The notes beneath the pieces are model-generated. The model saw only the letters and a program-made list of their open reading frames with translations, was not told the DNA's origin and did no database searches. Below are positions 1,728 through 55,137 of a stretch of DNA of 64,000 bases, piece by piece (within the stretch, counting starts at the first letter, position 1; the number at the start of each line of letters is the position of its first letter). The DNA is taken from IMG/VR virus record IMGVR_UViG_3300016476_000256, positions 1 through 64,000 of that record. One strand, given 5' to 3'. The stretch comes from a virus. The translations under genes were made by a program, and so were the position numbers.

Positions 1728-4484
1728 CTAAGACTTATCTTTTGATTTTGTAGAACCACCTTTATCATACTTATTTTTATTGACTTGAGCTATCTGCAAC
1801 TGTTTATCAGCTATTTCTCTTTGCATATTTATCTTCTCTCTTTCTAAAGCTATCTTATCTCTATCAGCATTTACTCTGTTATCTTCTTTAGTTTTTTGAA
1901 GATCAGTTTGTTGCTGATATTGTTGTGTTGCTCTAATATCTTTCATAGCATCTGCATAGTCTGACATTTCATTCTGATTAACATCTGCCATAGATCCATA
2001 ACCTGCTGCTCTAATTTCTGCTACCAAGATATCTCTTTGTCTATCTTTTTCTTTCTCAGCTGCAACTGAATCAATCTTCATTTTCTCAATTTCTTGTTGA
2101 GATTTGATTTGTTGTTCTTGCATTTGCTGTTGTTGTTGCATTTCTTGTTGTTTAAGCTCCTGTTGTTTTTGTTCAGAAGACTTAAGAACAGTATTAAGTT
2201 GTGCAATTGAATCAGACTGTACAATTTTACCAAGATCATAAATACTAGCACCAGCTGTATTATTAGTCATGGCCATTTGTTTTAACTGCTCAAGAACAGC
2301 TCTGTGGTTTGCAGTAGTGCTACAGAATATATTAAGATCTCTCATCAAAAGATCTGTACCATTTATTTCAAAATTAACTTTTTCATCTGCTGTAGTAATA
2401 TAAGTTAATCTTGTAGATGGTTTTGTAGAGTGATAGTATTGTGCTAAGTCTGTACGCATTTGATGTACTCTAGGCATTAGATAATCACAATGCTGAATGA
2501 AGAACACCTCTGTCTGTGCATAAGATGCTGCAGCAGCTTGTTCTACCCCTGTAGCTGTCATCTGAGATAACTGTTGTCCCATTCTTTGTGGGTTAACTCC
2601 AATTACTTCATAAGCTTGTTGCTTGAAGTAGTTTGCAATATTAATCCTAGACATTAATCTTTCTGTCTGAGATAGATCTAGTTTTTGGAAGTGCTGGAAG
2701 TTAAGAGCATTCTCAGTGTTAGTAATAGACGTATCTAATGGTAACATCTGAAAATTCTTCATTGCTACATAAGCTTTAGCATAGTTACCTTTACCCCAGT
2801 CTTCACCAAGAGAGTGCTTAGGTAAAGTATTCTGATCTAACATGATAATAGTACCAAGCTCATCTACTAAGATATCTGCTATCTGATTGTTTACAATATT
2901 ATATCCAATCTGATATGGCTTCATTAAGTCTAATAGAGCAGTAGACCTAGTATTTCTATCTGAGAATACAGATCCTTCTACAGGAAGTTTACACCCATAT
3001 AGTGTGCTATCACCTTTAAATTGGAAAGGAATAGGTCCAATCTTTGATTTATTTATTCCTATGTACATTGGAGTAAATCCACCTGGATTATTCATACCCC
3101 AGAAAGATGGAATATTTGGTCCAATCTTAATACCACCCCATACTTCATTGATCCAGATCCAGTCTATATGCTCACCATAAATAAGAGTATCTTTAGTTTT
3201 ATTCTTATTTAATCTAGTATCATAAATTGGTTTAGTTGTGATTTCATAATCTTCATCAACTATATCCATCTTAACTTCACCATTATCATCTATAGAAATT
3301 AGATGTCCAACCTTTCTTTGTGACTTCCAATAGATTGTACTTACTCTTAATAAGTATGCAATACCTTGGTCATAATAGTCTTCTCCTTCAGAAAGTATCT
3401 GTGCAATAATATCTCCACCACTGTATACTGAATTAGACATTGCTGTAGTATATTGTCTATATGCAAGAGAAGGCATATTGACATTCCAGTCATGTGATTT
3501 TGTAGCATCATATCTTGTACCATCATTTTGATAACCTCCAACAACATAACCAGCAGATCTAATAGGATAAATTGCCTCTAAAGCTTTTAACTGTTCTTCA
3601 TCCATTAAATAGCCATACTTGTCTATTACATCTGATGGAGTCATCATATCTGTTTTACCAACCCAGTTAGCTTGTGATATATATCTAGCATCTGGAGATT
3701 TGTGGTAGAAAGTAATTGCTGGATTCCAAAGCTCTACTTCATAGTCATCTTCCATCATTCTAAAATGCCAGAACTCTCTATCTGTAATAAGCATGTCTCT
3801 AAATGCTCTTTCTTCAAGTTCATCCATTCTAAATCTTTCTACATCTACTTTATGTTGATGAGAAGCCCACTCTTCAATCATTGATCTGTAATCTTTCTTG
3901 AAGTACATTTCTATCTCAGGAAGAGTTTTTAATTTTTCATCAGATGTTTCTTGCATAAATTCTTCAGATGCTGGATCTAATCCTTGATCCATTAATGCAG
4001 ATGAAATTTTCATCTTAGCATCTTCTAATAAAACATCCTCTACCATTTTTCTTTTTTGCTCTAGCATCTCATTATATGAGAACTCATCCACAGCACGGTA
4101 AGTAAGTTTAGTTGATCTCTTAGCAAATTCAGCTACAAGAACATTAATAACATTTGGAATAATAGGATAAAACTTTAATTCTAGTGCAGAAGCATCTTCC
4201 TTAGTGAGTAGTTCTACTATATCTCTATACTCATTATTATCTTCTACAATATAATCAGACTTATCTATAATACCTTTTGCAAGCTTGTAGTTTTTCATCA
4301 ACCTTCTGGCATTTCTACGGATTTGTTTTAATCCTTGCCATTCTACCCAATCCAAGTTCCAGGCAGCCCATGCTTCATCTTTTTCCTTTTTAGGTAAAAA
4401 CTGTAATGGCTGAGTAACAGTACCCATTCTACTGTTTTCAGCTTTTGCTCCTTTCTTTAACTGTAATGCGTTATATACTTGCAT
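1728..4484 (-). CDS. portal protein
   Basis: 918-aa ORF starting 3 nt after the terminase stop. Size and position are typical of a portal. Q/E/K-rich coiled C-terminal tail. No motif-level proof. Confidence 0.7.
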   Translation of the reverse strand: MQVYNALQLKKGAKAENSRMGTVTQPLQFLPKKEKDEAWAAWNLDWVEWQGLKQIRRNARRLMKNYKLAKGIIDKSDYIVEDNNEYRDIVELLTKEDASALELKFYPIIPNVINVLVAEFAKRSTKLTYRAVDEFSYNEMLEQKRKMVEDVLLEDAKMKISSALMDQGLDPASEEFMQETSDEKLKTLPEIEMYFKKDYRSMIEEWASHQHKVDVERFRMDELEERAFRDMLITDREFWHFRMMEDDYEVELWNPAITFYHKSPDARYISQANWVGKTDMMTPSDVIDKYGYLMDEEQLKALEAIYPIRSAGYVVGGYQNDGTRYDATKSHDWNVNMPSLAYRQYTTAMSNSVYSGGDIIAQILSEGEDYYDQGIAYLLRVSTIYWKSQRKVGHLISIDDNGEVKMDIVDEDYEITTKPIYDTRLNKNKTKDTLIYGEHIDWIWINEVWGGIKIGPNIPSFWGMNNPGGFTPMYIGINKSKIGPIPFQFKGDSTLYGCKLPVEGSVFSDRNTRSTALLDLMKPYQIGYNIVNNQIADILVDELGTIIMLDQNTLPKHSLGEDWGKGNYAKAYVAMKNFQMLPLDTSITNTENALNFQHFQKLDLSQTERLMSRINIANYFKQQAYEVIGVNPQRMGQQLSQMTATGVEQAAAASYAQTEVFFIQHCDYLMPRVHQMRTDLAQYYHSTKPSTRLTYITTADEKVNFEINGTDLLMRDLNIFCSTTANHRAVLEQLKQMAMTNNTAGASIYDLGKIVQSDSIAQLNTVLKSSEQKQQELKQQEMQQQQQMQEQQIKSQQEIEKMKIDSVAAEKEKDRQRDILVAEIRAAGYGSMADVNQNEMSDYADAMKDIRATQQYQQQTDLQKTKEDNRVNADRDKIALEREKINMQREIADKQLQIAQVNKNKYDKGGSTKSKDKS

Positions 4485-4486
4485 AG

Positions 4487-6688
4487 TTATTTTATATTTT
4501 TAAATGGTGATTTTTTAAAAGCCTGACCATTAATTAAGTTACTGCGTCCACCAATATGCCTAAATGGACTACTATTTAATTTAAACAAATTTTCTGACTT
4601 TTGCAAGTTTTTAGCTACATCATCCATGATAGTTCTTTTTGAATAACCTCTGTTAGATTGTTGTATTCTCATGAATGCAACCAATGCTGTAAATGCCACA
4701 AGTCTATCCACGTTAAGACCCTCTGTATATTCTTGCATTTCTTTAATAAGCATGGGGTCCGGGATTCTTTCTATTCCATATTTAGTTTTTACAATTGTTC
4801 CATCAGGTTTTGTTTCTACATCTAGTTCCTCTTTACAATACTCTATAACATAACTTAATAAGTGTGCCTTAAATAAAGTACCAGTATTTCTCCAACCATA
4901 CTCTTGATAAACATTAGTATTTGCACCAAGATCCTTTAAGAACATGATTTGATTCTTAGGTACAAGATATCTTTGTTTCTTTCTAGATATCATATATTGT
5001 ATAAACAAAGACACGTTACTTTCTATAAGTGCCCATGCATTATACCATTCTATTATTAGTTCTAATCTTTGGTGAGTTTTGTTAATGTCATCAAATCTAC
5101 CACACCAAGCAGCTACTATTTTATCTTGTTCTATATATGTTTCTGTTTCAGAACCAGTTACTTTAGTTACTTCTACCGGTGCTTTCATTACATATATAGA
5201 GCATAATGATTCTGATGTAGTTGTTTTACCTTCTGATACGGGGTCAATAGATGCATAATACTGACCAAATACCGGATCTTTAATTGGTCTTTCCCATACA
5301 ACAAGAGTTCCTGTTTTATCTTCTAATTTCTTAGATACAGGGAATTGCATAATAGGTAATTTATGAGTTTCCTTTACTGCAGGTTTTCCATTCTCATTAT
5401 AGAATATATCTAAGAATTCATATGCATATTCTTTTTCTTCTATTCTTCTCTGTTGTGCAGCTACAAGATGGGGCGGAAACACAGATACAGATCTATGTGC
5501 AAATGCTTCTTCAATATTTCTAGGGTGCTGAGATATCCTTAACTGGTAGTCTTCTGGAGATAAATCTTTCTTCCATTCTTCAAACTGTCTATCTAATGCT
5601 TCTAATGCATCTTCTACAAGTGAATTACCATATTGATCAATATGCGGAGGCATTGACCATTGCTCAGGAATAAACAAACCTGAGAGACCTTCTGTTCCAT
5701 TTTTATCAATAAGATTTGTTTCTACTGCATAAATATCTTTAGATGTAGGATTTAGAATCATATCTTTAAGTGGGTTACACTGAGATAAATCTCCCACAGA
5801 TCCTGCAGCTATAAACATACCTGTAGTAATTAAACCAGATCTCATTGCTGGTCTCATATACTCATAGGTCTGATCCATCTTTGGTGCAATACCAGCCTCC
5901 TCATGAAAGAAAAACTTTACTGGACCCCCTACACCATTTGTTGGATCTTTCTCAAATGACATTCCCTGCATTGTACCTTTGAGACCCACTTCATTTTTTC
6001 TATCTCCTTTTCTTACTTCAATCTTCTGTTGCCACATCATTACTTTATGTGGAGTCATTGGTCTATACCATGCAGTATGTTCATTTAAGAAAGCTGCATA
6101 TTCATCTAAGAACTTCCATGAACCTTTTTCATTTATATAGTCTTTAAGACTTGCTCCTATCTTCAAAGTAACCCCAGCTTCAAACCATATTTGATTTAAT
6201 AGCTTAGCCATGTGAAAATAAGAAGAGGCTATCTGACGTTTCTTAAGAATAGCTACGTGCTTATAGTTGAGCTCTGCCAATAGTTCATAGAGGGCCATGT
6301 GATACTGGGCATCACGTATTTTAGCAAAGTCAAAAATTTGCTGTTCTTTATCGAATATTGGTAAGAAGTTAAGCCACATGTAGTAATCTCTTGTAAGGTA
6401 CCAGGTGTTTTCTCCTGACTTATAGATAACTCCTCTTCTACATTTGAGTTTTTGATCATCCCAGTAATTGATAAAATCTTTGGATTTAAATGGAGAGTCA
6501 CAGTAGTATCCATTGTCTCTGAACTTTCTTGACTCTGCATTAAATAATAAGCTAGTTTCATTAAAATTATATTTACCCGGTTCTTTAAAAATATCTCTTA
6601 CAAACTTGGCAAACTCTTCTCTTGAGGAAAAATCTGTAATAGTCCAAGTTCCATTATCATATGTTGGTATGTTCTCAAATATTTCCAT
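4487..6688 (-). CDS. terL: terminase large subunit
   Basis: 733 aa, immediately upstream of the portal. The C-terminal half carries a nuclease-type segment (YYASIDPVSEGKTTTSESLCSIYV). Architecture and synteny fit TerL. Confidence 0.8.
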   Translation of the reverse strand: MEIFENIPTYDNGTWTITDFSSREEFAKFVRDIFKEPGKYNFNETSLLFNAESRKFRDNGYYCDSPFKSKDFINYWDDQKLKCRRGVIYKSGENTWYLTRDYYMWLNFLPIFDKEQQIFDFAKIRDAQYHMALYELLAELNYKHVAILKKRQIASSYFHMAKLLNQIWFEAGVTLKIGASLKDYINEKGSWKFLDEYAAFLNEHTAWYRPMTPHKVMMWQQKIEVRKGDRKNEVGLKGTMQGMSFEKDPTNGVGGPVKFFFHEEAGIAPKMDQTYEYMRPAMRSGLITTGMFIAAGSVGDLSQCNPLKDMILNPTSKDIYAVETNLIDKNGTEGLSGLFIPEQWSMPPHIDQYGNSLVEDALEALDRQFEEWKKDLSPEDYQLRISQHPRNIEEAFAHRSVSVFPPHLVAAQQRRIEEKEYAYEFLDIFYNENGKPAVKETHKLPIMQFPVSKKLEDKTGTLVVWERPIKDPVFGQYYASIDPVSEGKTTTSESLCSIYVMKAPVEVTKVTGSETETYIEQDKIVAAWCGRFDDINKTHQRLELIIEWYNAWALIESNVSLFIQYMISRKKQRYLVPKNQIMFLKDLGANTNVYQEYGWRNTGTLFKAHLLSYVIEYCKEELDVETKPDGTIVKTKYGIERIPDPMLIKEMQEYTEGLNVDRLVAFTALVAFMRIQQSNRGYSKRTIMDDVAKNLQKSENLFKLNSSPFRHIGGRSNLINGQAFKKSPFKNIK

Positions 6689-7203: not shown

Positions 7204-8033
7204 TTCTTTTTGATTTTATCTTTATTATCATGCAAATAATGCATAATAGCTGTTACTTCATCTTTTAGATATGGTATTTCCATTTGTATTACATCTTTAA
7301 CAATTGGGTCACCATTTTCATCATAGCTTGTTAATGGATAACCATATCTATCTTCTCCATCTGTTTCAAATAGTATATGATGAATAAACATTTTCCCAGG
7401 TTGTAATTTAGGATTATGCTTTAATATCATATACATATAGATACTTAACTGTAAACTGTAATGATTAAAATTACAATCATCTAAGTTAGATACAGGAGAG
7501 AGTAGCTTTTCAGAAACTCCCTCCCAATCTTTGTAAGATTCAGTCTTAATCTCTTTATTAGTTTTGTAATCAATAATGTTTACTTTACCATTAACTACTT
7601 CTACGAGATCTGACTGACCACAGATGCCTGCTGATTTAAGATAAACCATATGCTCTGGATACACGCCTGGTTCTAATTTTTGTGAAGGAGCTATCTTAAT
7701 TCCATTTGCTAAATCATTTGGTTTAAACACTGGAACTGTAACACCTTCTCTTTCTATTGAAGCTAAAGAACATAAGTCAGCTTCTCTTTGATTATGATAG
7801 AATGTTCCAAGAGTAACTGCTCTTTCTGATTCTGCATTCCAAATAGATATAATATCTTTTGGTGAGAAACCATACCACTTAGATCTCTTGTTCTTACAAA
7901 CCTTCTTTGCAATCTTCTCTGCATCAAATGGTTTTTTAAAATGAGATACTAGTGTAGTAACACTTATCCAATTAATCTCTGAGCCATCATTGCTTTTATA
8001 GCTATGATCTTTGGCATTAAATACTATACTCAT
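7200..8033 (-). CDS. PD-(D/E)XK (RecB/Cas4-like) nuclease
   Basis: GQSDLVEV...VNIIDYKTNK gives the D...(D/E)xK core. A downstream QLSIYMY segment matches the QxxxY motif typical of the RecB nuclease family. Confidence 0.65.
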   Translation of the reverse strand: MSIVFNAKDHSYKSNDGSEINWISVTTLVSHFKKPFDAEKIAKKVCKNKRSKWYGFSPKDIISIWNAESERAVTLGTFYHNQREADLCSLASIEREGVTVPVFKPNDLANGIKIAPSQKLEPGVYPEHMVYLKSAGICGQSDLVEVVNGKVNIIDYKTNKEIKTESYKDWEGVSEKLLSPVSNLDDCNFNHYSLQLSIYMYMILKHNPKLQPGKMFIHHILFETDGEDRYGYPLTSYDENGDPIVKDVIQMEIPYLKDEVTAIMHYLHDNKDKIKKK

Positions 8034-8323
8034 AGTTTTTCTAATTCTTGTTCTTGTTCTTCAGTAATTAAAGCATCCCATTTACCTAATGGGCATGAAG
8101 ATGATAATGACCTGGTTTTAAAAGCAAGAGAACATCCACACTCATTACAGCAAGGAGCTGTACCTTTTACTGCACATTTCTTACCTTTGCTAGGACACTC
8201 ATCACAGATGTCATATCTAAGTCTAGATATTTCTTCAACTGTCTCATCTCTAATTACAGAGTTCTTAATTCCTTCAAGAATCTGTGATCTGTTTTGCCAA
8301 ATAAGATTAAGTACGTTCTTCAT
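8030..8323 (-). CDS. Cys-rich putative zinc-binding protein
   Basis: 97 aa with clustered cysteines (CDECPSKGKKCAVKGTAPCCNECGC...SSCPLGKW). ATGA overlap with its neighbour. Confidence 0.6.
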   Translation of the reverse strand: MKNVLNLIWQNRSQILEGIKNSVIRDETVEEISRLRYDICDECPSKGKKCAVKGTAPCCNECGCSLAFKTRSLSSSCPLGKWDALITEEQEQELEKL

Positions 8324-8681
8324 TGTTTTTGGTTTTTAAAAATTCTTCTTTTCTATTATTTACTTGTTCTAACTTAGAGCTTAACTTTAATAATAGCTCC
8401 AGTTTATTTTCCATTGCTTTTTTATTATGGTATGCTTTGAAGGTAGAAGTATCATGATTATCAAGTGATTTAGTTATCTTATCAATTGAACCAGCTACTG
8501 CTTTTGGCTTTGCTACAAACTGACCAAGACCATCTATATTTATTCTTGGATATTCTAGATTAGTAAGTAGCTTTCTAACATCTTTATAATAAAACTCTAC
8601 TAAGTCTTCAACTAAATCTTTTTTAATGTTTAGATCTTCAGATACTACATCATAGATTCTTTTAGCTTTCCTTGGATTCAT
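8307..8681 (-). CDS. hypothetical protein
   Basis: 124-aa ORF in the same-strand operon, overlapping both neighbours. No secure motif. Confidence 0.6.
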   Translation of the reverse strand: MNPRKAKRIYDVVSEDLNIKKDLVEDLVEFYYKDVRKLLTNLEYPRINIDGLGQFVAKPKAVAGSIDKITKSLDNHDTSTFKAYHNKKAMENKLELLLKLSSKLEQVNNRKEEFLKTKNNEERT

Positions 8682-9039
8682 CTCCTAAAAATTTATAATC
8701 TAAAAGAATAGTTCCTTCTGTCTGAATTTTTAAATCTGGATTTAGTTTAATTAACTTTTTGTTAGATGCATCTTTAATTACCAAATTATTTTTCTCAGCT
8801 TTATTTACACTGTTTCTTACAGTCTGCGGAGATTTAAAAATTGGCTCTTCTTCAGAAGATGCATCATAACAAAAGTCTGTTAATTCTATTGGTTCATTAA
8901 AACTTAGTAAAGTCAAGCAATTAAGATCTGAATCACTAAGATTAATTCTCTTAATGTAACAGTGTGTAAGAATCTGAAATTTAACTACATCCCATTTAGG
9001 CATTCTTACTCTTTTCTGTACTTGATTTACTATGGCCAT
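8662..9039 (-). CDS. hypothetical protein
   Basis: 125-aa ORF, tightly packed in the operon. Confidence 0.6.
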   Translation of the reverse strand: MAIVNQVQKRVRMPKWDVVKFQILTHCYIKRINLSDSDLNCLTLLSFNEPIELTDFCYDASSEEEPIFKSPQTVRNSVNKAEKNNLVIKDASNKKLIKLNPDLKIQTEGTILLDYKFLGDESKES

Positions 9040-9041
9040 GA

Positions 9042-9323
9042 TTACCCTCTTTTAAGCTTTCTACCCTCAGATTTAGTTGGCTCAGAAGATTCTTCTTGAT
9101 CATCTTCTGCTTCTTGTTGTGGACCATTCATCATCATGGCAAATTGATATTGAATACTAGATCTTTTAAATCTTGTTTCATCAATTTCTAAAAGCATTTT
9201 TTCATAATCTAACTGAGCTCTTAAATAAGGCATTGATTCTCTATAGAATTCAAGCATCTTTTCTTTTTGCTCAGCTAATTGTTCTGGAGTCATCTCCATT
9301 TCTGGTTGTTGGTTTGTTTCCAT
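9042..9323 (-). CDS. hypothetical protein (acidic, helical)
   Basis: 93-aa ORF. First gene after a terminator/promoter-like gap. Confidence 0.6.
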   Translation of the reverse strand: METNQQPEMEMTPEQLAEQKEKMLEFYRESMPYLRAQLDYEKMLLEIDETRFKRSSIQYQFAMMMNGPQQEAEDDQEESSEPTKSEGRKLKRG

Positions 9324-9349
9324 AAGACTTTAATTTATATTAGTTTACA

Positions 9350-9382
9350 CAAATATATATATAAAAAGTTTAAATAAAACAA
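9350..9382 (-). promoter_or_regulatory. Bacteroidota-type promoter candidate (TTG ... TATATTTG)
   Basis: On the minus strand, TATATTTG (plus coordinates 9357-9350) matches the TAnnTTTG -7 box. A TTG lies at 9382-9380, 22 nt upstream. The box ends 26 nt before the ATG at 9323. The spacer is slightly long. Confidence 0.35.
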
Positions 9383-9384
9383 GT

Positions 9385-9420
9385 TTAAATAAAAAATCCA
9401 GATATACTACATACCTGGAT
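9385..9420 (-). terminator. intrinsic terminator (minus strand)
   Basis: 6-bp stem 9396-9401/9415-9420 (ATCCAG/CTGGAT), followed on the minus strand by TTTTTTATTT. Downstream of the 9444..9758 gene. Confidence 0.55.
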
Positions 9421-9443
9421 TACCTTACCTATAGAGAAGTAAT

Positions 9444-11059: not shown

Positions 11060-11544
11060 ATTGTAGGTATTTGAGCTTTAATCAGACGGTATATAATATA
11101 TAATATAATAATTATTAACCATATACCACCCAACCATGCTAGGAAGTTGACCCAACCCGGGATGTATTTTATTTTTTGTGGCTTTTGAGTTTTTGTAACA
11201 AGTTTGGTTTTGTAAATTGTATTGCCCTTGATAGTTCTATAAATAGTATCTGTCTTTGCAATTACTTTATATTTATTATTTCTTATACGAGATTGTAACT
11301 TAATAATAGTCCCATCTTTTTCTGCTAGTCTAGATGCATATACATTACCTAATGAATCACAGAATAATGTATCTTCTATAAATACAGTTTCTCCTGGGAT
11401 ATTGATTGTAGTATCTCTAATTTGTGTTATAGTTACTACACTATCTTTTTGTGTACACAGTGGACAGTACTTAGCCAGTCTTCTCTCTAATGAACAAGAA
11501 GTAATAAATACTAACAGCAATGAAAGTATAAATACTCTTTTCAT
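11056..11544 (-). CDS. unimolecular spanin (u-spanin) candidate
   Basis: N-terminal lipoprotein signal with lipobox (LLLVFITSC). Single C-terminal TM helix (WVNFLAWLGGIWLIIIILYIIY). ATGA overlap with the holin gene. Confidence 0.5.
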   Translation of the reverse strand: MKRVFILSLLLVFITSCSLERRLAKYCPLCTQKDSVVTITQIRDTTINIPGETVFIEDTLFCDSLGNVYASRLAEKDGTIIKLQSRIRNNKYKVIAKTDTIYRTIKGNTIYKTKLVTKTQKPQKIKYIPGWVNFLAWLGGIWLIIIILYIIYRLIKAQIPTI

Positions 11545-11804
11545 TATAAAGTTGCAAAAGTTAAAAATGCTGCATATGTATTTGTTGATCCATCAAAAAA
11601 TACACTCTGAGAAATTAAATATGAATCTGGAGCATTTGCAAATTCCGCATTAATTAAAGACTCTAATGTTGATGCTGATAAATCAGACAAGTAAAGAGTT
11701 CTTAAGTTTCTATATTGCGGTAATGAAAGGCCTTGTAAAGTCTTTAATTGAAAAGGAAAGTTATTTCCTTTATTTCCGTAATCTTTTAAATTTCCTATTG
11801 ACAT
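11544..11804 (-). CDS. hypothetical protein
   Basis: 86-aa ORF between the fibre cassette and the lysis cassette. Confidence 0.55.
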   Translation of the reverse strand: MSIGNLKDYGNKGNNFPFQLKTLQGLSLPQYRNLRTLYLSDLSASTLESLINAEFANAPDSYLISQSVFFDGSTNTYAAFLTFATL

Positions 11805-11815
11805 AATTTATTATT

Positions 11816-12523
11816 TTAATATAGTTTATGAAGAACAAACAAATCTGTATACACACTATCTGAAGCACTTGCTTGTCCCCATTGTGCAGTAACATCTAAT
11901 GTGTTATTTATTGTAGTATCAAATGTTGTGTTATTTACAGTATTAAATCCTGTTCCTTCAAATGAAGTACTTGCGTTCTTTGTATAAGAATATATACCTC
12001 CAGAAACAATAGATGCTACCCCAGCAGCTCCTAAAGATTTAATAGTAAAATACACATTGATCTCAAAAGGTCTATTTGTTGAATTTCCAAGAGTTATTAC
12101 TCCAGTATCTGCAAGCAATACAGAACCACTTTTAATTCTAATTCTAATAGTATGATTATTAGCAGTTGACATCATACCAATTAATTTAGCATGAAAAGAA
12201 TCTCCAACTTGAAATCCATTTGCTGGAACTGACAATGATCCAACTCCAGTTCCAGTTATACTAGTTTCAGTAGTTGTATTTGTAACAGGAACACTATTTA
12301 CTGTTTGTGCAAATAAACCTGTACCAACTGGTGGTGGAGGTGGAAGCAGTGTTGCAATAGTATTTGCAAAATCCTGAATAGTCATACCATATGTTTGGTA
12401 ACTATCACCTCTTTGTATAGGACCAACATCAGCACCTAATGCAATAATATCTGTATTAGTATTATTAGCTGTAGGTCTAATTAACTCGTTAGTCTTAAGA
12501 TATATCCAGTTTAAAATATCCAT
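11816..12523 (-). CDS. tail fibre/receptor-binding protein paralog (divergent anchor module)
   Basis: Starts MDILNWIYLK...MTIQDF, related to the MDILNFISWI...TVQDF module of three upstream genes. PPPPP linker, then a T/N/S-rich beta-type C-terminus. Confidence 0.55.
   Translation of the reverse strand: MDILNWIYLKTNELIRPTANNTNTDIIALGADVGPIQRGDSYQTYGMTIQDFANTIATLLPPPPPVGTGLFAQTVNSVPVTNTTTETSITGTGVGSLSVPANGFQVGDSFHAKLIGMMSTANNHTIRIRIKSGSVLLADTGVITLGNSTNRPFEINVYFTIKSLGAAGVASIVSGGIYSYTKNASTSFEGTGFNTVNNTTFDTTINNTLDVTAQWGQASASDSVYTDLFVLHKLY
12374..12523 (-). repeat. anchor-module repeat, divergent copy
   Basis: The first ~50 codons of 11816..12523 share MDILN.I and M/TxQDF with the other copies. 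Confidence 0.5.
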
Positions 12524-12525
12524 GA

Positions 12526-12648
12526 TTATTTCTTAAGTGTCTCTAAAAACTTTTCATATACTGCAATTGCAGTAGCATCATTATCATTAAGATATGCGTA
12601 TGTTCTTTTTAATCTTTCTAAAAAAAGTTCTAAACTAAAATTTTTCAT
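12526..12648 (-). CDS. small ORF (40 aa), possible fibre accessory protein
   Basis: Hand-translated as MKNFSLELFLERLKRTYAYLNDNDATAIAVYEKFLETLKK. It exactly fills the gap between two fibre genes, with 2 nt on each side. Confidence 0.4.
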   Translation of the reverse strand: MKNFSLELFLERLKRTYAYLNDNDATAIAVYEKFLETLKK

Positions 12649-12650
12649 AA

Positions 12651-13163
12651 CTAGTTATATTTACGGATTGTTAATACACAAGGAAAACCAAAACTTAAAT
12701 CAGCACCTATTACATTATCTGCTGGTACACCATTTAAAAATGATTGAATAAACATTGCAGGTGGAAAAACAGCATATGCTTCAATTGTAATTAAATCTCC
12801 ACTTATAGGATCTGTAAAACCAGATGAAATAGTTATGTATTCATTTGGAGAATCAAATATATTTTTATCAAAAGTAACTGCATAACCACCAACTCCAGCA
12901 TAAAAAAATGTTGGATTAACATCTAATGTATTTTTTAATACAACTACTGTAGGGTCATTTATTCCTCTTTGTGTAATTAATACAGTGTATTCTTTATACC
13001 CATTAACTGTAGGTTCAAAGTTTTCTACTGTCATTGCACCAGGCAAATACTGATCATCTCTACGCTCATCTTTAAGACCAAGTGGAATTAAAGTTTTTTT
13101 GCGGTCTGCTGTAGTTGCATATCCTTTACCTTTAATCCAGGAGATAAAATTTAAAATATCCAT
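12651..13163 (-). CDS. tail fibre/receptor-binding protein paralog
   Basis: 170 aa. N-terminus is MDILNFISWIKGKGYATTADRKKTLIPLGLKDERRDDQYLPGAMTVENF (shared anchor module). Unique C-terminus. Confidence 0.6.
   Translation of the reverse strand: MDILNFISWIKGKGYATTADRKKTLIPLGLKDERRDDQYLPGAMTVENFEPTVNGYKEYTVLITQRGINDPTVVVLKNTLDVNPTFFYAGVGGYAVTFDKNIFDSPNEYITISSGFTDPISGDLITIEAYAVFPPAMFIQSFLNGVPADNVIGADLSFGFPCVLTIRKYN
13014..13163 (-). repeat. anchor-module repeat
   Basis: First ~50 codons conserved with the copies at 14024..14173 and 15456..15605. Confidence 0.7.
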
Positions 13164-13183
13164 GACTTTATTTATTTTATTTA

Positions 13184-14173
13184 TTAAATTCTTGTTACCG
13201 ATAAATACCTTGCAGCAATACTAGTTGTTCCACCAATAGATTCTACAACAACTACTATATAAGTATTTAAAGACCAGTTTATAGTTCCACCTGACATTGC
13301 ATTATCAAATATTCCTGAGTTATAAGTTACACCAGTATTACTTCCAATTCCTGAATCAGAAAATCCAGTATTTGGATTTGATCCATTATTTAAAAATTGA
13401 ACAGTATTATTTGTAAACCAAATGTCTTTTTCAATTTTAATTGCCCTTTGATTAACTCCACTCGTTGTTGTTTCTGCATCAGCAATTAATGTGGCTCCAA
13501 CAGTTCCATATGCAGCTCCTTGTGTAGGAGCAGTATTAGAAATATATACTCTTACTCGCATGGTTGTTGCAGAAGCAAGTTTTTGCAAAGCTGTTTTTAC
13601 ACAAAAAATTGGCCAAGAAGTATTGTTATAAGTATTGGCTGGAATAGTAGAAAAAGTTACTACTAAAGGTGTTGTGTCAACTGAAACAAGACCTGAAGGA
13701 ACTTTACTAAAACTTGGAGTTGCTGTTCCAGATGGCCCAACTGGACCTTGAATTCCTTGAGGACCCTGTGGACCAGTTGCTCCTTGAGAAGCTAATAATG
13801 CCCAGCTAGTTGGATCTGCAGGAGGATTAGCTCCACCTGGTCCAACATTATTAATACAAAACCAAGAAGCCCCAGCATAGCCTACTGCATCATCTACTAC
13901 ATAAGTACCTGCTGCTGACCATGCACCTTGCCAATTAAGGCCTGCTGGTCCTACTGGTCCTGGGACACCTTGTGGTCCTATTGGTCCTTGTGCACCAGCT
14001 GGTATACTTGCTGCAACTTGTGTTGTAAAATCTTGTACTGTAATAGCACCTGTTAAATATTCATCATCTCTTCTATCATCTTGAAGAGCCACAGGTAGCA
14101 ATGTTTTATTAGGGTCAACAGAATTTACAATTCTGCGACCTCTAATCCATGATATAAAATTTAAAATATCCAT
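13184..14173 (-). CDS. collagen-like tail fibre protein
   Basis: Shared anchor module, then two Gly-X-Y runs: GAQGPIGPQGVPGPVGPAG (about 13940-13999) and GATGPQGPQGIQGPVGPSG (about 13727-13783). Unique C-terminal domain. Confidence 0.75.
   Translation of the reverse strand: MDILNFISWIRGRRIVNSVDPNKTLLPVALQDDRRDDEYLTGAITVQDFTTQVAASIPAGAQGPIGPQGVPGPVGPAGLNWQGAWSAAGTYVVDDAVGYAGASWFCINNVGPGGANPPADPTSWALLASQGATGPQGPQGIQGPVGPSGTATPSFSKVPSGLVSVDTTPLVVTFSTIPANTYNNTSWPIFCVKTALQKLASATTMRVRVYISNTAPTQGAAYGTVGATLIADAETTTSGVNQRAIKIEKDIWFTNNTVQFLNNGSNPNTGFSDSGIGSNTGVTYNSGIFDNAMSGGTINWSLNTYIVVVVESIGGTTSIAARYLSVTRI
14024..14173 (-). repeat. anchor-module repeat
   Basis: MDILNFISWIRGRRIVNSVDPNKTLLPVALQDDRRDDEYLTGAITVQDF. 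Confidence 0.7.
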
Positions 14174-14175
14174 GA

Positions 14176-15264
14176 TTATTTATTATTTGCTTTTAATGTT
14201 TCTAGTTCTTCTTTTAAAGATTTAACTTCTGAACTTAACTCTTGAATAGCTTTAACTAATACAGGTAATAATTTACCGTAAGATGCTTCTAGTTTTTCAG
14301 GGTTTTCTTCATAAACTAAACCAAGGTAACTTGCATTTGCTTCTTCTTGTGATGCTTTTAGATCTTGAGCAATAAACCCAAAATCTTCTACATCATGCTT
14401 ACCTTCCTCATTTCTATCATCCCAGGTAAACTTAACAGGCTTTAATTTTTCTACAAACTCTAATCCTACTGGTAGTTCTTCTATTTCTTTTTTATCTCTA
14501 GCATCCGAAAGAGATGTAATTGTGGTTACAGCACATCTTAAAACATTATTTGAACTATTACCAAGAGTAATTGAGTTACTAGCACTATCACTTGCTTTTG
14601 TAGCATTTCTACCTATTACAATATTATTAGATCCTGTTTGCAGATTAAAATAAGGATTTGCTGCATCATATGCTCCAATGATAACATTGCTATCTCCCCC
14701 ACCATAATTAAGACAGGCATTAGTACCTAACCAAACATTATTATTACCAGATCCTCCAGTACCAACACCTGTTGTTCTTGAACCTAAAGCTGTATTATTA
14801 TTGCCAGAATTAAATTGTTGACCTGAACCATATCCAATAAACGTATTAAAATCACCAGAAAGAAGCTGGTCACCAGCTGCCAATCCTAATCCTGAATTGC
14901 CTTGTGTAGCTGTATTTAGATTTCCAAGAGCAAAAGTTCCAACTGCAGTATTACCATAACTAACTCCATTAATAGCAGCCAATGCACTTCTTCCAATTGC
15001 TACATCATTTACACCATCTCCAGCTTTATAAGCATCATATCCAACAGCAGTAGCTGCAATTCCAACGGTTGATAATTGCATTGCATTTACACCTACTACA
15101 GTATTTAATGTACCCATTTGTGGATTAATTCCACCAACAATTGACTGTCCTGCATTGTCTCCAATAATAGTATTATTAACAAGTGGATTTACAATTTCTA
15201 TCCCGTTTGCTGTTAGTACTGTTCCTGATTGAGGAAGTATTATATCTACATTAATTTGACTCAT
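14176..15264 (-). CDS. tail fibre with C-terminal intramolecular chaperone (peptidase S74-type) domain
   Basis: The C-terminal ~114 aa (14176-14520) read ITSLSDARDKKEIEEL...FGFIAQDL...LLPVLVKAIQEL plus a coiled tail. This matches the S74 auto-cleaving chaperone signature. Start moved to MSQINV (15264) because that ATG overlaps the upstream stop as ATGA. Confidence 0.8.
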   Translation of the reverse strand: MSQINVDIILPQSGTVLTANGIEIVNPLVNNTIIGDNAGQSIVGGINPQMGTLNTVVGVNAMQLSTVGIAATAVGYDAYKAGDGVNDVAIGRSALAAINGVSYGNTAVGTFALGNLNTATQGNSGLGLAAGDQLLSGDFNTFIGYGSGQQFNSGNNNTALGSRTTGVGTGGSGNNNVWLGTNACLNYGGGDSNVIIGAYDAANPYFNLQTGSNNIVIGRNATKASDSASNSITLGNSSNNVLRCAVTTITSLSDARDKKEIEELPVGLEFVEKLKPVKFTWDDRNEEGKHDVEDFGFIAQDLKASQEEANASYLGLVYEENPEKLEASYGKLLPVLVKAIQELSSEVKSLKEELETLKANNK

Positions 15265-15605
15265 GGTATTATTGTTAAGGTTGTTCCTACTGGAATGGTT
15301 AAAGTTTTCCCTACGCACATTGCTAGGGGTGATTTATATGTTAAATTGGAATTAGCAGGTAATGTAAGATTTTCATTAATACATCCTACTACTGTAAAGC
15401 CGTTAGCCCAAATAGATGAGGTAACAGCTGGACCTGGAGGTGTAGGAATTTGTGCAATGAAATCTTGAACAGTCATAGTGACTGGTACATAATCATCGTC
15501 TCTCCTATTAGTTTTTAAACCAAGAGGTAATAATGTTTTATTAGGGTCAGCAGTAGTAACAATTCTACTACCCTTAATCCAACTAATAAAATTTAAGATA
15601 TCCAT
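15261..15605 (-). CDS. anchor-module protein (114 aa), possible adaptor for the S74 fibre
   Basis: MDILNFISWIKGSRIVTTADPNKTLLPLGLKTNRRDDDYVPVTMTVQDF plus only ~65 further residues. Its TGA overlaps the ATG of the next fibre gene. Confidence 0.6.
   Translation of the reverse strand: MDILNFISWIKGSRIVTTADPNKTLLPLGLKTNRRDDDYVPVTMTVQDFIAQIPTPPGPAVTSSIWANGFTVVGCINENLTLPANSNLTYKSPLAMCVGKTLTIPVGTTLTIIP
15456..15605 (-). repeat. anchor-module repeat
   Basis: First ~50 codons conserved with the other fibre paralogs. Confidence 0.7.
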
Positions 15606-15665: not shown

Positions 15666-15800
15666 TTAAGATATTATATCTCCAATTTCTAATGTGTCAG
15701 AAATGATATAGGTTATTTCAGATAACATGTGCATATTATCTTCTTCAATTACAATTATATTCTCTACAATATTATCTACTATTATTGCTACGCGTATCAT
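15666..15800 (-). CDS. small ORF (44 aa)
   Basis: Hand-translated as MIRVAIIVDNIVENIIVIEEDNMHMLSEITYIISDTLEIGDIIS. Its ATG overlaps the TAA of the upstream fibre gene (TAATG). Confidence 0.35.
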   Translation of the reverse strand: MIRVAIIVDNIVENIIVIEEDNMHMLSEITYIISDTLEIGDIIS

Positions 15801-17449
15801 TAGAAATATGTTATAATTACACAATAACCATTACCTCCTGTACCACCAGCTCCTGATGCAGCTCCATTTGTAGATGCTCCTCCACCCCCACCTCCAGCAC
15901 ATATACCACCATTACCACCTCTTCCCCCAGCTATTGTTCCTGCTGCATCTCCTGATGCTCCACCTGCTCCCCCAGATGATAATACAGCAAAGTTTGCATC
16001 TGTTAATGAAAATGTACCATTTGCACCAACAGCACCTGCTGCTACTCCACCGGATGTAGTATAAAACAATGTAGCTAAATCCATTTTTCTATTTTGAATA
16101 GAAGAACCTGAGTATCTATTATTTGCTGTATCTATTCCACCACCATATACACCACATGAGATTGGCCTAACATTCAGTATGTTAGTAGTAGTAAAACCAT
16201 TTGCACTAAATGATCCTGTACCATAAGCATTAACACCATATACGCCATAGATAAGTTGTGCTGCTGATTGACCACTACTATTTGCAACGTTAGTTCCACC
16301 AAAACCACTTCCCCCACCTGGAGCTATTATCTTAGCAGTTGCTGCATTTCCAGTTCCACCCAAATATGAAGCACCTCCAACACTACCTGCAGAACCATTT
16401 GTATTATCTACAGTAACACCATTTGCACCATTTCCTCCAGTACCAATCCAAATATTTTCTGTAGCAGATAATACTGAAGCATCCATTTTATTAATTACAA
16501 CAGAACCAGTAGCTGCCCCACCACCACCATATCTCCCTGTTGTTGCAGCACCTCTTCTACCTGCGCCACCACCACCTCCTGCACCAAATATAAATACTTC
16601 TACTACTGTTGCATTTGCAGGTTTAGTCCATACTCCACTTGATGTAAACGTCTGTATATTAACTGGTGTTCCACCACTACTTGCATAATTAGGAATATTT
16701 AAAGTAGAGCCTGTAAGTGTAGCAGCACCTGATGTACCTGTTGTTGTTAAAGTTAATTTAGGTTGATATGTACTAGCAGCTGTTGCTGATGTAAGGTATG
16801 GTGTTAATGCAGAAGAATCAATATAACCAGCGGGGTTTGCTGCATCATATGGTGTATATCCAAGAGCACTTGTAACCATTGACCCAGATATAGAATTTAA
16901 ATATCCTGCAGGGTTACTACTATCATAAGGTGTATAACCTAACGCAGTAACAACATCTGATCCTGTTATACCTGAGATATATGCATTAGGATTTGTAAGT
17001 GGATAATAAGTACTAGCAGCTGCAGATGTAGTTAAATAACCTGAGAGAGCTGCATTTGTAATATATCCAGAAGGATTTGTCAAAGGATAGTAAGTACTAG
17101 CTGCAGTCGCTGAAGTTAAATAAGGAGTAAGTGCTGATGAGTCAATATATCCAGCAGGGTTTGCACTACTATATGGTGTGTATCCCAAAGCAGTTATTAC
17201 ATCAGATGATGTTATGCTTGTAAGATATCCTGCCGGGTTTAAACTTAATGGATAATACTGTAGATCATATACGGGTATACCATTAGACCATGTAACAGAG
17301 GGGTTAGGATAGGTACCAGAAAGATCCCCCCCAGCTGGACCAGAAGGAGTACCTCCCCCTCCTCCACCAGAAGTCTTTGGTTTACCATCTGGACCATTTA
17401 CTTGTAATCCACTTCCAAATACATTTCCATTATTATCAACTACTTGCAT
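15800..17449 (-). CDS. repeat-containing tail fibre with glycine-rich C-terminal domain
   Basis: 549 aa. Internal ALGYTPY / NPAGYI / LTSATAASTY repeats. The C-terminal half is dominated by GG/GxG runs (GGGGGAGRRG, GGRGGNGGICAGGGGGGAS). Confidence 0.65.
   Translation of the reverse strand: MQVVDNNGNVFGSGLQVNGPDGKPKTSGGGGGGTPSGPAGGDLSGTYPNPSVTWSNGIPVYDLQYYPLSLNPAGYLTSITSSDVITALGYTPYSSANPAGYIDSSALTPYLTSATAASTYYPLTNPSGYITNAALSGYLTTSAAASTYYPLTNPNAYISGITGSDVVTALGYTPYDSSNPAGYLNSISGSMVTSALGYTPYDAANPAGYIDSSALTPYLTSATAASTYQPKLTLTTTGTSGAATLTGSTLNIPNYASSGGTPVNIQTFTSSGVWTKPANATVVEVFIFGAGGGGGAGRRGAATTGRYGGGGAATGSVVINKMDASVLSATENIWIGTGGNGANGVTVDNTNGSAGSVGGASYLGGTGNAATAKIIAPGGGSGFGGTNVANSSGQSAAQLIYGVYGVNAYGTGSFSANGFTTTNILNVRPISCGVYGGGIDTANNRYSGSSIQNRKMDLATLFYTTSGGVAAGAVGANGTFSLTDANFAVLSSGGAGGASGDAAGTIAGGRGGNGGICAGGGGGGASTNGAASGAGGTGGNGYCVIITYF
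16760..17254 (-). repeat. intragenic tandem-like peptide repeats
   Basis: Residues ~66-230. The segment IDSSALTPYLTSATAASTY occurs twice and (V/I)TALGYTPY(D/S)..NPAGY(I/L) three times. The DNA copies have diverged at synonymous sites. Confidence 0.7.
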
Positions 17450-17747
17450 AATCTACACCGTATACATAATAAGTTGTTCCTGGGATATTGGAGTATACAA
17501 CTAATTCATCTCCTTCTTTTAGAGCATATATTAAATCATCTGTTACTGTATCTCCTGCTCCTAGTGTTAATTCATATATAACTTCACTAGTAGTAGTAAT
17601 AGCATCATATCTTTCAAGAGTCAGAACATATGGTAAAGCATTGTAAAACCTTAAGGTTGTTATCTTAGTTAATACGGGACTAGCTGTACCTATGTATAGT
17701 ATTGTACCAGCTACATCAACTTCCCCTTGTTTAACAAATTCTGCCAT
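17436..17747 (-). CDS. hypothetical protein (fibre-associated by position)
   Basis: 103-aa ORF overlapping the fibre gene start by 14 nt. First gene after a terminator. Confidence 0.55.
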   Translation of the reverse strand: MAEFVKQGEVDVAGTILYIGTASPVLTKITTLRFYNALPYVLTLERYDAITTTSEVIYELTLGAGDTVTDDLIYALKEGDELVVYSNIPGTTYYVYGVDYASS

Positions 17748-17758
17748 ACACTAATATA

Positions 17759-17788
17759 CAAAAAAATCCCCAGCTTTGCAACTGGGGA
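17759..17788 (-). terminator. intrinsic terminator (minus strand)
   Basis: 7-bp stem 17767-17773/17782-17788 (TCCCCAG/CTGGGGA), followed on the minus strand by TTTTTT. Confidence 0.65.
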
Positions 17789-17829
17789 CCATTTTGCTGT
17801 ATTGCTAGAAACATGGAAAGAAATACAGA

Positions 17830-18021: not shown

Positions 18022-18275
18022 TATTTCATTTTTAATAGTTTCTCAGACATAAGTAAAGCTCTTGTCAAGTCACCAATTGTCTGATCAAATAATAAACTCT
18101 TTACTGGAGATCTATTAAGATTATAATTCTCTTTAAGATCTTCAGCTAATTTAGAAAATGTTTTTCTAAGTTCAATAATTTCTTCAGACTCATTAATTTC
18201 TTCTGAGTCTAAACCAACTAAAATATCCCCAAAGGAATAAATCTTAGTTTCTTTAAAAGCTACTTGCTCACTCAT
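18021..18275 (-). CDS. hypothetical protein
   Basis: 84-aa ORF, overlapping start/stop with its neighbours. Confidence 0.55.
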   Translation of the reverse strand: MSEQVAFKETKIYSFGDILVGLDSEEINESEEIIELRKTFSKLAEDLKENYNLNRSPVKSLLFDQTIGDLTRALLMSEKLLKMK

Positions 18276-18580
18276 AATCTATCAATTCTTCTTTGTAAAT
18301 ATACTAAAGCTTTTTGTAAGTCTTCTTTTTTGTTAGAAGTTTTTTTACCAGCTCTTGCTAAATACTTTATAACATTTCCTAGATAAAAGTCTTGATCTAG
18401 TTCCCAAGCTTCGAGTACATTAAATACTTCATAAGTATTTCCTGCACCACCATAATACTTAGGTCTATCAAGATTTACCAATCTATCTGTCAATGGTATC
18501 TGCTTAGATACTATCTTGTCAAATGGTGTTTTCATTTGACGTTGATACATCTCTTCTGATTCTTGTGTAAAGTTTACCAT
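18272..18580 (-). CDS. DUF3310-like protein
   Basis: YEVFNVLEAWELD...GNVIKYLARAGKK...DLQKALVYL matches the DUF3310 pattern as I recall it. Confidence 0.6.
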   Translation of the reverse strand: MVNFTQESEEMYQRQMKTPFDKIVSKQIPLTDRLVNLDRPKYYGGAGNTYEVFNVLEAWELDQDFYLGNVIKYLARAGKKTSNKKEDLQKALVYLQRRIDRL

Positions 18581-19138: not shown

Positions 19139-19336
19139 TTATTTAATCACTCTATTAAAAGTTATATTACTTTTTGCGCGTATGTCTTTATGAGTATACT
19201 GCCAGAACTCACCTGTTTCATTTATTATCACAGTGTATATAGTATCTGTTTCATGCCCATAGTCAGTAACTAACCAAATAACCCCCGGGCCTTTTGGTGT
19301 AATAACTTCTATTCTATTAGTAGGTTCATAGATCAT
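19139..19336 (-). CDS. hypothetical protein
   Basis: 65-aa ORF. ATGA overlap with the upstream gene. Confidence 0.5.
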   Translation of the reverse strand: MIYEPTNRIEVITPKGPGVIWLVTDYGHETDTIYTVIINETGEFWQYTHKDIRAKSNITFNRVIK

Positions 19337-20001
19337 GGTAGTTCCATTTTAATTTTTTCATCCCGTTCTACTAATGTCTTATATAACTCTATATCTGTTG
19401 ACCATTCCCTACCTGTCCAAAACTCAAACCCAGAGTAGTTAGATTTATATAAACAACACTGCTCATACCCACCCAACAAATATATATATTCACAGCCTAA
19501 TATTCTAGCTGTTTCACATTCATACATTTGAGCTACAGTACCCAGTGATAATTTAGGATTAGTATAATCCCATATAAACTGGTATGCTACAAATTGATCA
19601 TTGAATGTTTTGTATAAACTAATCCCTATCAAATCTCCATCCCAGTATTCTATAACAGAGCAATCTTCAAATGATGATAAACTAATATCCCGTTTAAACC
19701 CATGATAGTCACAATACTTCTCATACAGTTCAGAATACTTTTCTCTTTCAGCAGATACATTACCTGCTTGAACTATAACTCTCTTTGATAATTTCTTAGT
19801 TGTCTTTGATGGGGAGTACTTAGATAAATCAATCCGGGTACTTCTTTCATTATACCATTTCCCCTCCCAGGGAATCCATCCTTGTTTAAGTGCGTCTGTA
19901 GAAGATTCATTTTCTTCTAGTATACCATAAGCACAATTGACTATAACTTCTAGATCACTTACTTTACCAAAACCATTAATGTGATCAAAGTAGACTTTCA
20001 C
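19333..20001 (-). CDS. aminoacyl-tRNA-protein transferase-like protein (Bpt/ATE C-terminal family)
   Basis: STRIDLSKYSPSKTTKKLSKRV and GDLIGISLY...PKLSLGTVAQ...YIYLLGGYEQCCLYKSNYSGFEFWTGREW align by eye with the Bpt/ATE core (..RI.....S.SQKRL..K ; L.AV...D...SLGT....YLYLGY...C..M.YK..F.....W). Confidence 0.6.
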   Translation of the reverse strand: MKVYFDHINGFGKVSDLEVIVNCAYGILEENESSTDALKQGWIPWEGKWYNERSTRIDLSKYSPSKTTKKLSKRVIVQAGNVSAEREKYSELYEKYCDYHGFKRDISLSSFEDCSVIEYWDGDLIGISLYKTFNDQFVAYQFIWDYTNPKLSLGTVAQMYECETARILGCEYIYLLGGYEQCCLYKSNYSGFEFWTGREWSTDIELYKTLVERDEKIKMELP

Positions 20002-55119: not shown

Positions 55120-55137
55120 TCTTCCCCTTATTTTTTT
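55102..55137. terminator. bidirectional terminator between convergent blocks
   Basis: GGGGAAG/CTTCCCC stem (55107-55113/55121-55127), flanked by AAAAA on the 5' side and TTATTTTTTT on the 3' side. Confidence 0.7.

Follow-up and report, generated by a model that had tools for sequence, protein, structure and literature searches.

The tail fibre gp22 of crAss001, a trimer, uses its residues 1-26 to dock in each of 12 tail hubs, and the head fibres gp21 (97 amino acids (aa), a trimer, residues 1-38) and gp29 (a dimer, residues 1-58) dock in hexon pockets (PMC10172136). Other phages arrange their fibres in tiers: gp37 of K1-5 is an adaptor, and the second receptor-binding proteins (RBPs) of KP32 and G7C attach through conserved N-terminal peptides (PMC6872550). 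The crAss001 precedent makes N-terminal docking plausible in the group to which the phage described here appears to belong, and it also leaves docking on the capsid as a rival to docking on the tail. Here we analyse positions 1 to 64,000 of IMG/VR virus record IMGVR_UViG_3300016476_000256 (64,000 nucleotides (nt); hereafter the window). Its minus strand carries, between ~17.75 and 11.54 kb, what we take to be a hypervariable receptor-binding fibre block of a crAss-like phage. The fibre genes in this block would be built from short constant N-terminal 'address' modules, which dock, and exchangeable C-terminal binding domains, with one short protein, the stub, acting as an adaptor. We consider this overall model probable.

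Four open reading frames (ORFs) on the minus strand begin MDILN(F/W)I and share an N-terminal module, here called type 1, as a sequence-only reading of the window had noticed. Numbered by coordinate, gene 1 (11816-12523) encodes a 235-aa T/N-rich protein, with a divergent module subtype (MDILNWIYLK...) at 12356-12523. Gene 2 (12651-13163) encodes a 170-aa small tip protein, with the module at 13005-13163 and a beta-sandwich tip domain at 12654-12998, and gene 3 (13184-14173) a 329-aa collagen-like fibre with the module at 14015-14173. Gene 4 (15261-15605) encodes the 114-aa stub, the proposed adaptor, in which the module (15447-15605) is followed by a proline-rich linker and a C-terminal domain (C-domain) at 15264-15416. 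Over the first 53 aa, identity to the stub copy is 64% for the 170-aa and 329-aa copies alike and 38% for the 235-aa protein, which has two small insertions. BLASTP comparison of the 235-aa protein with the collagen-like ORF gave an alignment limited to the N-terminus (E=2e-6, a single comparison), and the C-termini of the four proteins showed no mutual alignment, as the earlier reading had also held. The divergent copy, likewise remarked on at that stage, appears to represent a conserved subtype, which recurs in related locus L079 (MTILNWLYLKK...) and in other loci. The count of four module genes stands; what had been missed is a fifth fibre gene, which encodes a 362-aa protein at 14176-15264 and lacks the type-1 module.

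At the DNA level, three of the modules form a family of 159-nt direct repeats (13005-13163, 14015-14173 and 15447-15605) with 71-75% identity. The 18-mer motif AAAATTTAAAATATCCAT has exact copies at 13146 and 14156, a copy with 1 mismatch at 15588 and one with 3 at 12506; when up to 3 mismatches are allowed it has 5 matches, against 0.69 expected from shuffles. The gene starts had been described as nearly identical in DNA, and this motif bears that out in part, with exact identity extending only ~20-22 nt. Such a run, the longest common to the gene starts, shows no excess over the constraint imposed by the MDILNFI codons in an AT-rich genome. Codon constraint explains it, and the suggestion that these sequences serve as recombination handles is doubtful at best.

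We ran a full HMMER scan of 1.84 billion protein representatives with the module profile; a word-indexed protein search with the same profile recovered 5 fragments only. The scan yielded 268 clusters at 50% identity with E<=1e-3, 164 of them with E<=1e-10. The module occupies residues 1-53 in 149 of 150 listed proteins, the exception being a probable mis-called start, and the proteins that carry it range from 56 to 840 aa. It has no Pfam, PHROG or PDB sequence match, and we take it to be an undescribed protein family. Two independent AlphaFold2 (AF2) models gave it the same fold: a helix at residues 3-11, strands at 25-31 and 39-45, and a second helix from 46 to 52-54. Foldseek searches of PDB with both models (the 170-aa protein and the stub) returned nothing significant, and neither did PDB sequence searches with the 170-aa family profile, the fibre encoded at 14176-15264, the collagen fibre and the 415-aa and 876-aa proteins find matches. 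The four module proteins of the window match no Pfam family beyond a sub-threshold Collagen hit, and they lack a Phage_T7_tail or head-binding-domain signature.

What follows the module is diverse. Single-linkage BLAST clustering placed 324 C-termini in at least 44 clusters. Pfam recognises a minority of them (Collagen in 18 of 142 module-protein representatives, Lcl_C in 5, CBM_5_12 in 4, and also BclA_C and UspA1 repeats), and all recognised types are adhesin or carbohydrate-binding; no anchor family was among the matches in these 142 representatives. In the window itself, the 329-aa fibre matches phrog_5073 (tail fiber) at 1.5e-26 and Pfam Collagen at 1.8e-5, below cut-off, and its body is homologous to an Elemovirus 'putative tail fiber protein'. 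The 170-aa protein was modelled with a predicted local distance difference test (pLDDT) score of 84, and its C-domain matches predicted tail-fibre proteins in BFVD from Olleya phage Harreka_1, Flavobacterium phage lotta8-1 and cyanophages (E 6e-9 to 1e-3). The C-domain of the 235-aa protein is 64% identical to proteins of related loci L049-51 and is homologous to Elemovirus QMP88292. The GenBank label of that entry, 'PE-PGRS family protein', looks like a mis-annotation of a fibre protein.

Collagen repeats start straight after the module and form triple helices, so the module must work within a trimer. We infer that the helix, beta-hairpin, helix unit is a trimer-compatible virion-docking anchor, which would place the collagen-like fibre, the small lectin-like tip protein and the T/N-rich protein on the particle, either together or in mixed stoichiometry. 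The same juxtaposition has been weighed for a different role, in which the module is a folding or trimerisation nucleus, or a tag recognised by an assembly chaperone, and attachment is left to other surfaces. Collagen triple helices do need a trimerisation nucleus, and the compact helix-hairpin-helix unit predicted by AF2 would suit one. We nonetheless judge a folding role quite unlikely: the stub consists of the module and a small conserved domain, with nothing obvious to fold; the S74 fibres bring their own chaperone; and the stub C-domain changes its N-terminus between phage lineages (see below), as expected if the N-terminus matches a lineage-specific virion site.

Comparison among 76 related IMG/VR loci revealed a block that is rearranged between stable flanks. 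Two to four tandem, same-strand module genes are present in 64 of the 76. Flanking genes recur in 55-65 loci with 88-99% amino-acid identity; genes of the cassette either show 45-90% identity or are swapped for unrelated ones, and synteny is broken between the conserved flanks. Between loci, 100 protein pairs combine modules of at least 90% identity with C-termini that have no BLAST match, and 39 pairs show the converse, with C-termini at least 85% identical and modules no more than 65% identical. Elemovirus phages carry homologues of two window C-domains behind another shared N-terminus. These mismatches mean that module and C-terminus have had separate histories, and the two parts appear to recombine freely. 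The view of the region as a modular host-range locus, and the cassette swapping expected of it, are therefore well founded, and host-range variation would arise by the swapping of C-terminal domains behind constant tags. Within one genome, paralogous modules have a median identity of 48%, compared with 78% for orthologues between loci, which gives no sign that modules evolve in concert within genomes. The modules fall into subtypes, of which the canonical one is promiscuous, and 21 of 65 multi-copy loci repeat a subtype.

The Elemovirus arrangement can be seen in vB_FspP_elemoA_3-5A (MT497105.1, locus L001), where the fibre genes at 7271-8395 and 8785-9429 share an N-terminal motif of their own, M..T.FLGVD....DL.E.K...KTEY..L.DI, ahead of C-domains homologous to those of window ORFs 13184 and 11816.

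The earlier reading took gene 4 for a short stub. Comparative data lead further. Its C-domain comprises 51 aa with the consensus SIWANGF.VVGCI.EDITLP.N.NL.Y.SPLAMCVGKTLTIP.GTTLTI and two invariant cysteines, and was found in 106 clusters at 90% identity, 54 of which also carry the type-1 module and are conserved at 107-121 aa. All proteins with the domain are 77-122 aa long save one of 185 aa; the domain always ends the ORF and never occurs in a longer protein. It is more conserved than the anchor that precedes it (mean identity 79%, against 62% for the module). In the AF2 model it is beta-rich with a pLDDT of ~82, and the linker is disordered. Searches with the stub gave no Pfam or PHROG match, no T4gp10-like domain and no Foldseek PDB match.

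Next to the stub lies the fibre at 14176-15264 (minus strand, 362 aa), which represents a second class. It begins with the N-terminal peptide MSQINVDIILPQSG..ANG (15190-15264), continues into a repetitive adhesin-like body and carries a Peptidase_S74 domain at 14338-14508 (PF13884, 6.5e-13, 49.2 bits against a cut-off of 22). Its PHROG assignments are phrog_23837 and phrog_4636, with tail-spike and structural matches, and PF13884 is also present in its orthologues at L079, L082 and L084. The peptide, here called type 2 and summarized as MS(Q/T)INVD.I.PQSG..V.VNG, heads 32 ORFs with bodies of 135-379 aa. In L031 and L059 it bears the 'YKVY.ALL.Q' tip domain of the window's 170-aa type-1 protein. 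Among cultured phages, the Methylophilales phage Venkman and Caudoviricetes sp. vir515 have related S74 fibre bodies with neither an MSxINVD peptide nor a stub; further cultured-phage matches to the S74 body were to Pelagibacter HTVC112P and SPO1.

The stop codon of the stub and the ATG of the type-2 fibre overlap as ATGA (15264-15261), and the downstream frame is open for 18 codons upstream of that ATG. This raises the question of whether the stub might be a pseudogene left by truncation, or else an N-terminal portion of the S74 fibre that a frameshift or sequencing error has split off. We rejected this explanation, which is extremely unlikely, on the basis of the conserved short length across the 106 clusters and the complete lack of fused forms. 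Reading the overlap also disclosed no X XXY YYZ slippery heptamer. Moreover, the spacing between the two genes varies (-4, +1, +17 and +21) and their order is reversed in the L036 group, and since spacing varies or order reverses, stub and type-2 fibre must be separate proteins.

Separate as they are, the two genes travel together. Wherever the flank suffices, the stub adjoins one to four type-2 genes. Counted per locus, both were present in 26, the stub alone in 2 (both at contig edges), type 2 alone in none, and neither in 49. With a truncated ORF in L060 counted as a stub, the tally of 26/3/0/48 gives a Fisher p of ~1.6e-17, a value that overstates the evidence, as the loci are related. On an independent 125-kb ENA scaffold, too, an S74 fibre comes after the stub. 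Judged by its sequence features and genomic company, the stub most likely serves as an adaptor. Its anchor, which is lineage-specific, would fix it to the virion, and its two-cysteine C-domain would be the socket for fibres that begin MS(Q/T)INVD.I.PQSG. In the window, the fibre received would be the one with the S74 chaperone encoded immediately downstream. The stub is thus best read as an adaptor for a second fibre class; it is a conserved protein, and no remnant or degenerate RBP.

An anchor with no binding domain, present once beside one to four type-2 fibres, might also be a non-structural assembly factor, or a competitive 'cap' on anchor sites that tunes fibre stoichiometry. Such a role is hard to reconcile with strict adjacency to, and co-occurrence with, type-2 genes across two lineages that use different anchors, and the greater conservation of the C-domain than of the anchor also runs counter to it. 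We regard it as very unlikely.

The lineages in question differ in what precedes the stub C-domain. Besides the type-1 module, it is found on an MLNNLSNF... variant of the N-terminus, and on MSYIQKSY... in a large family of 95-97-aa proteins in phages with a P22-type portal (contigs of 13-40 kb). Stubs of the MSYIQKSY... family are directly followed by MSTINVD fibres, of which two different alleles occur in L082 and L083. We put forward, tentatively, a portable plug-and-socket connector made up of the stub C-domain and the MSxINVD peptide. It would pass between unrelated phage lineages, each of which supplies its own anchor, so that the type-2 peptide faces a universal socket. The lineages concerned would be crAss-like phages of 100-125 kb and podophages with P22-type portals (contigs of 13-40 kb), perhaps joined by a cyanomyovirus, at the C-terminus of a giant baseplate protein. 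Together with the type-1 module and the third tag described below, this would amount to a three-tag addressing system that serves the adsorption apparatus.

A lead concerning the cyanomyovirus comes from Synechococcus phage S-H9-2 (NC_070960.1, L085). At 3902-4171, a giant 'baseplate wedge subunit' ends in ~40 aa that show a weak resemblance to the stub C-domain (EEDITIPQNTN...GPIEIASGTTITI; tblastn E=0.06; 22 bits with the stub hidden Markov model (HMM)). The next gene, at 4196-4960, starts MSGILRVDEIQTNSGS, which is reminiscent of the type-2 peptide, with an HMM score that is not significant.

The third tag, type 3, is an N-terminal peptide of ~27 aa, MS(I/V)GNLKDYGNKGNNFPWQLK.L.G, that stands at the start of 50 ORFs of related loci, with products of 86-439 aa. 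In the loci that were read, the window and L079 among them, the type-3 gene directly follows the last type-1 gene. The window's example closes the cassette and encodes an 86-aa protein (11544-11804, minus strand), whose N-terminal peptide, MSIGNLKDYGNKGNNFPFQLK.L.GL, lies at 11724-11804. Other examples are L003 12815-13153 and L036 9847-11154. In L036 and L023 the peptide is fused to a domain that in L003 is a separate 416-aa protein.

Where on the particle these proteins would sit, at the tail collar or hub or on the capsid, is a matter of inference, as are physical docking itself and contact between the stub and the peptide. If the type-1 module docked on the capsid, some or all of the cassette proteins would be head fibres that provide loose adhesion and not primary receptor binding. 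The crAss001 head fibres set a precedent, in that gp21 and gp29 bind hexon pockets by short N-termini and have their genes beside those for the portal, fibres and lysis; several module proteins are of comparably small size (114-170 aa), and divergent module subtypes in one genome would fit different pockets. The partners of the module suggest otherwise: they include S74-chaperone fibres, collagen fibres that match tail-fibre PHROGs and a tip domain common to annotated tail fibres, and an adaptor-and-branch logic is known for tails. On balance, capsid docking seems unlikely. The arrangement proposed when the region was first described, with several fibres docking at one site on the tail, is likewise no more than a candidate.

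A number of observations weigh against the model of docking modules with the stub as adaptor. The window does not reach the presumed ring, hub and capsid genes, nor the docking partner of the module. Neither the module nor the stub has sequence or fold similarity to solved anchors or adaptors. The identity of only ~48% between paralogous modules in a genome does not require one shared site and is equally compatible with several. When 50,697 phage records were searched by tblastn, neither the module nor the stub domain had a real match, and the cultured phages in INPHARED carry neither. The co-occurrence counts derive from related, non-independent contigs. Distances between stub C-domains and type-2 peptides are weakly correlated (Mantel r=0.35, p=0.01, 14 pairs), compared with r=0.16 and r=-0.04 for control pairs. 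Finally, three or four type-2 fibres can stand beside a single stub (L014 5644-9872, L047 7873-10440, L057 5110-7162). Up to four type-2 fibres per stub would mean that they compete for one socket or that each adaptor trimer offers several.

The block has further parts. Its first gene (17436-17747, minus strand) encodes a 103-aa protein that is present in 22 related loci with identity up to 86% and has no Pfam or PHROG match. It is followed by a glycine-rich, repeat-containing fibre-like protein of 549 aa (15800-17449, minus strand), which carries none of the three N-terminal tags. This protein has a weak Gly_rich_2 Pfam match (2.6e-4, below cut-off), matches tail PHROGs 863 and 754 and contains internal repeats D2 and D6; its conservation in relatives is limited to residues 120-549. 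Just upstream of the 103-aa ORF, a strong terminator-like hairpin (17765-17790, minus strand; 11-bp stem and a T run) sits exactly where the conserved upstream flank meets the variable block, and it is likely to be the upstream boundary of the fibre transcription unit. No comparable hairpin was found within the cassette. A doubtful 40-aa ORF (12526-12648, minus strand) occupies the 127-nt gap between module genes 1 and 2; with a homologue in 0 of 76 related loci, it is unlikely to be a real gene, and insertion of the 235-aa gene may have left the gap as a recombination scar. Downstream of the 86-aa ORF lie lysis genes: a lipoprotein-like ORF that may take part in lysis, a holin and Amidase_2.

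The conserved upstream flank includes a DUF3310 protein (18272-18580, minus strand). A 222-aa ORF at 19333-20001 (minus strand) matches PF04377 ATE_C, the C-terminal domain of arginine-tRNA-protein transferase, at 7e-9, above cut-off; it is 95-96% conserved in close relatives, and the function would be unusual for a phage. In the more distant relative L079, a Tad2-like (PF11195) protein of 95 aa is encoded at 6263-6550, three genes before the stub.

Assignment of the phage rests on its portal (1728-4484, minus strand, 918 aa; phrog_6547 at 5e-91) and large terminase (4487-6688, minus strand, 733 aa; phrog_6681 at 2e-60). By tblastn both show 21-33% identity to Leptolyngbya phage Lbo-JY46, Cellulophaga phi4:1, FpV phages and crAss001, and they are crAss-like. 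No close relative was found among the 50,697 GenBank phage records; the Elemovirus phages of Flavobacterium reach ~70% nucleotide identity over two fibre C-domains only. GTDB species genomes gave one match, a 118-kb scaffold that was binned with a Chitinophagaceae metagenome-assembled genome from Lake Mendota, and related viral contigs reach 102-125 kb. The window thus appears to be about half of a ~100-125-kb genome from an uncultured freshwater crAss-like lineage, the hosts of which are likely to be freshwater Bacteroidota. At 55136-61333 (minus strand), a 2065-aa ORF has a LysM peptidoglycan-binding domain near residues 1753-1792, and the 876-aa ORF that precedes it has no detectable homologues; these two are possibly ejected cargo or muzzle-type virion proteins.

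For crAss-like phages and other uncultured phages of Bacteroidota, little is known of host range, and it is difficult to identify the receptor-binding proteins. With three short N-terminal tags and one proposed adaptor domain, all absent from Pfam, PHROGs and PDB, hundreds of candidate receptor-binding proteins can now be picked out of metagenomes. If the adaptor reading is correct, the stub and its peptide would be a very small natural plug-in system for engineering or predicting fibre sets, and the logic of anchor, branch and conserved peptide found in coliphages and Klebsiella phages would extend to a distant and environmentally abundant phage group. A portable connector, if real, would be a common currency for fibre exchange across families of uncultured aquatic phages.

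Among described systems, crAss001 belongs to the same broad phage group, and it too attaches fibres by short N-termini and encodes them beside lysis genes. It differs in that its fibres have no common N-terminal module among paralogs and in how its genes are ordered with respect to the portal. By eye, the module looked as if it might be homologous to the gp22 N-terminus, but hhalign with gp22 residues 1-77, a weak test with a single target sequence, gave a probability of 0.2% and no support. Ackermannviridae such as CBA120 and Det7 resemble the window in displaying several receptor-binding proteins per virion (tailspikes TSP1-4) through conserved N-terminal domains (PMC11414711); they do so on myovirus baseplates and with XD/T4gp10-like domains, and we detected no homology.

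For the stub, the closest parallel is gp37 of K1-5, K1E and SP6, which carries two tailspikes with hepta- and undecapeptides (PMC6872550). In both cases, a small anchored protein without a receptor-binding domain is found with nearby spikes that have a short conserved N-terminal peptide and interchangeable bodies. Unlike the 51-aa, two-cysteine C-domain of the stub, gp37 has a T4gp10-like domain, and no similarity between them could be detected; the host phages are unrelated, and the adaptor role of the stub is putative. KP32/KP34-type Klebsiella phages and G7C (gp66/gp63.1) also combine a first-tier N-terminal anchor with a second-tier docking peptide, and there, as here, RBP genes break structural synteny and C-terminal domains are exchanged horizontally (PMC6872550, PMC13352976). 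In those phages, however, a depolymerase RBP with a branching domain itself provides the anchor, whereas the window has several anchor-bearing RBPs and a separate putative adaptor without a binding domain, and no homology was found. The design principle is a known one, and its parts here are new: the type-1 module, a minimal domain with two cysteines that would serve as adaptor, and the peptides of types 2 and 3.

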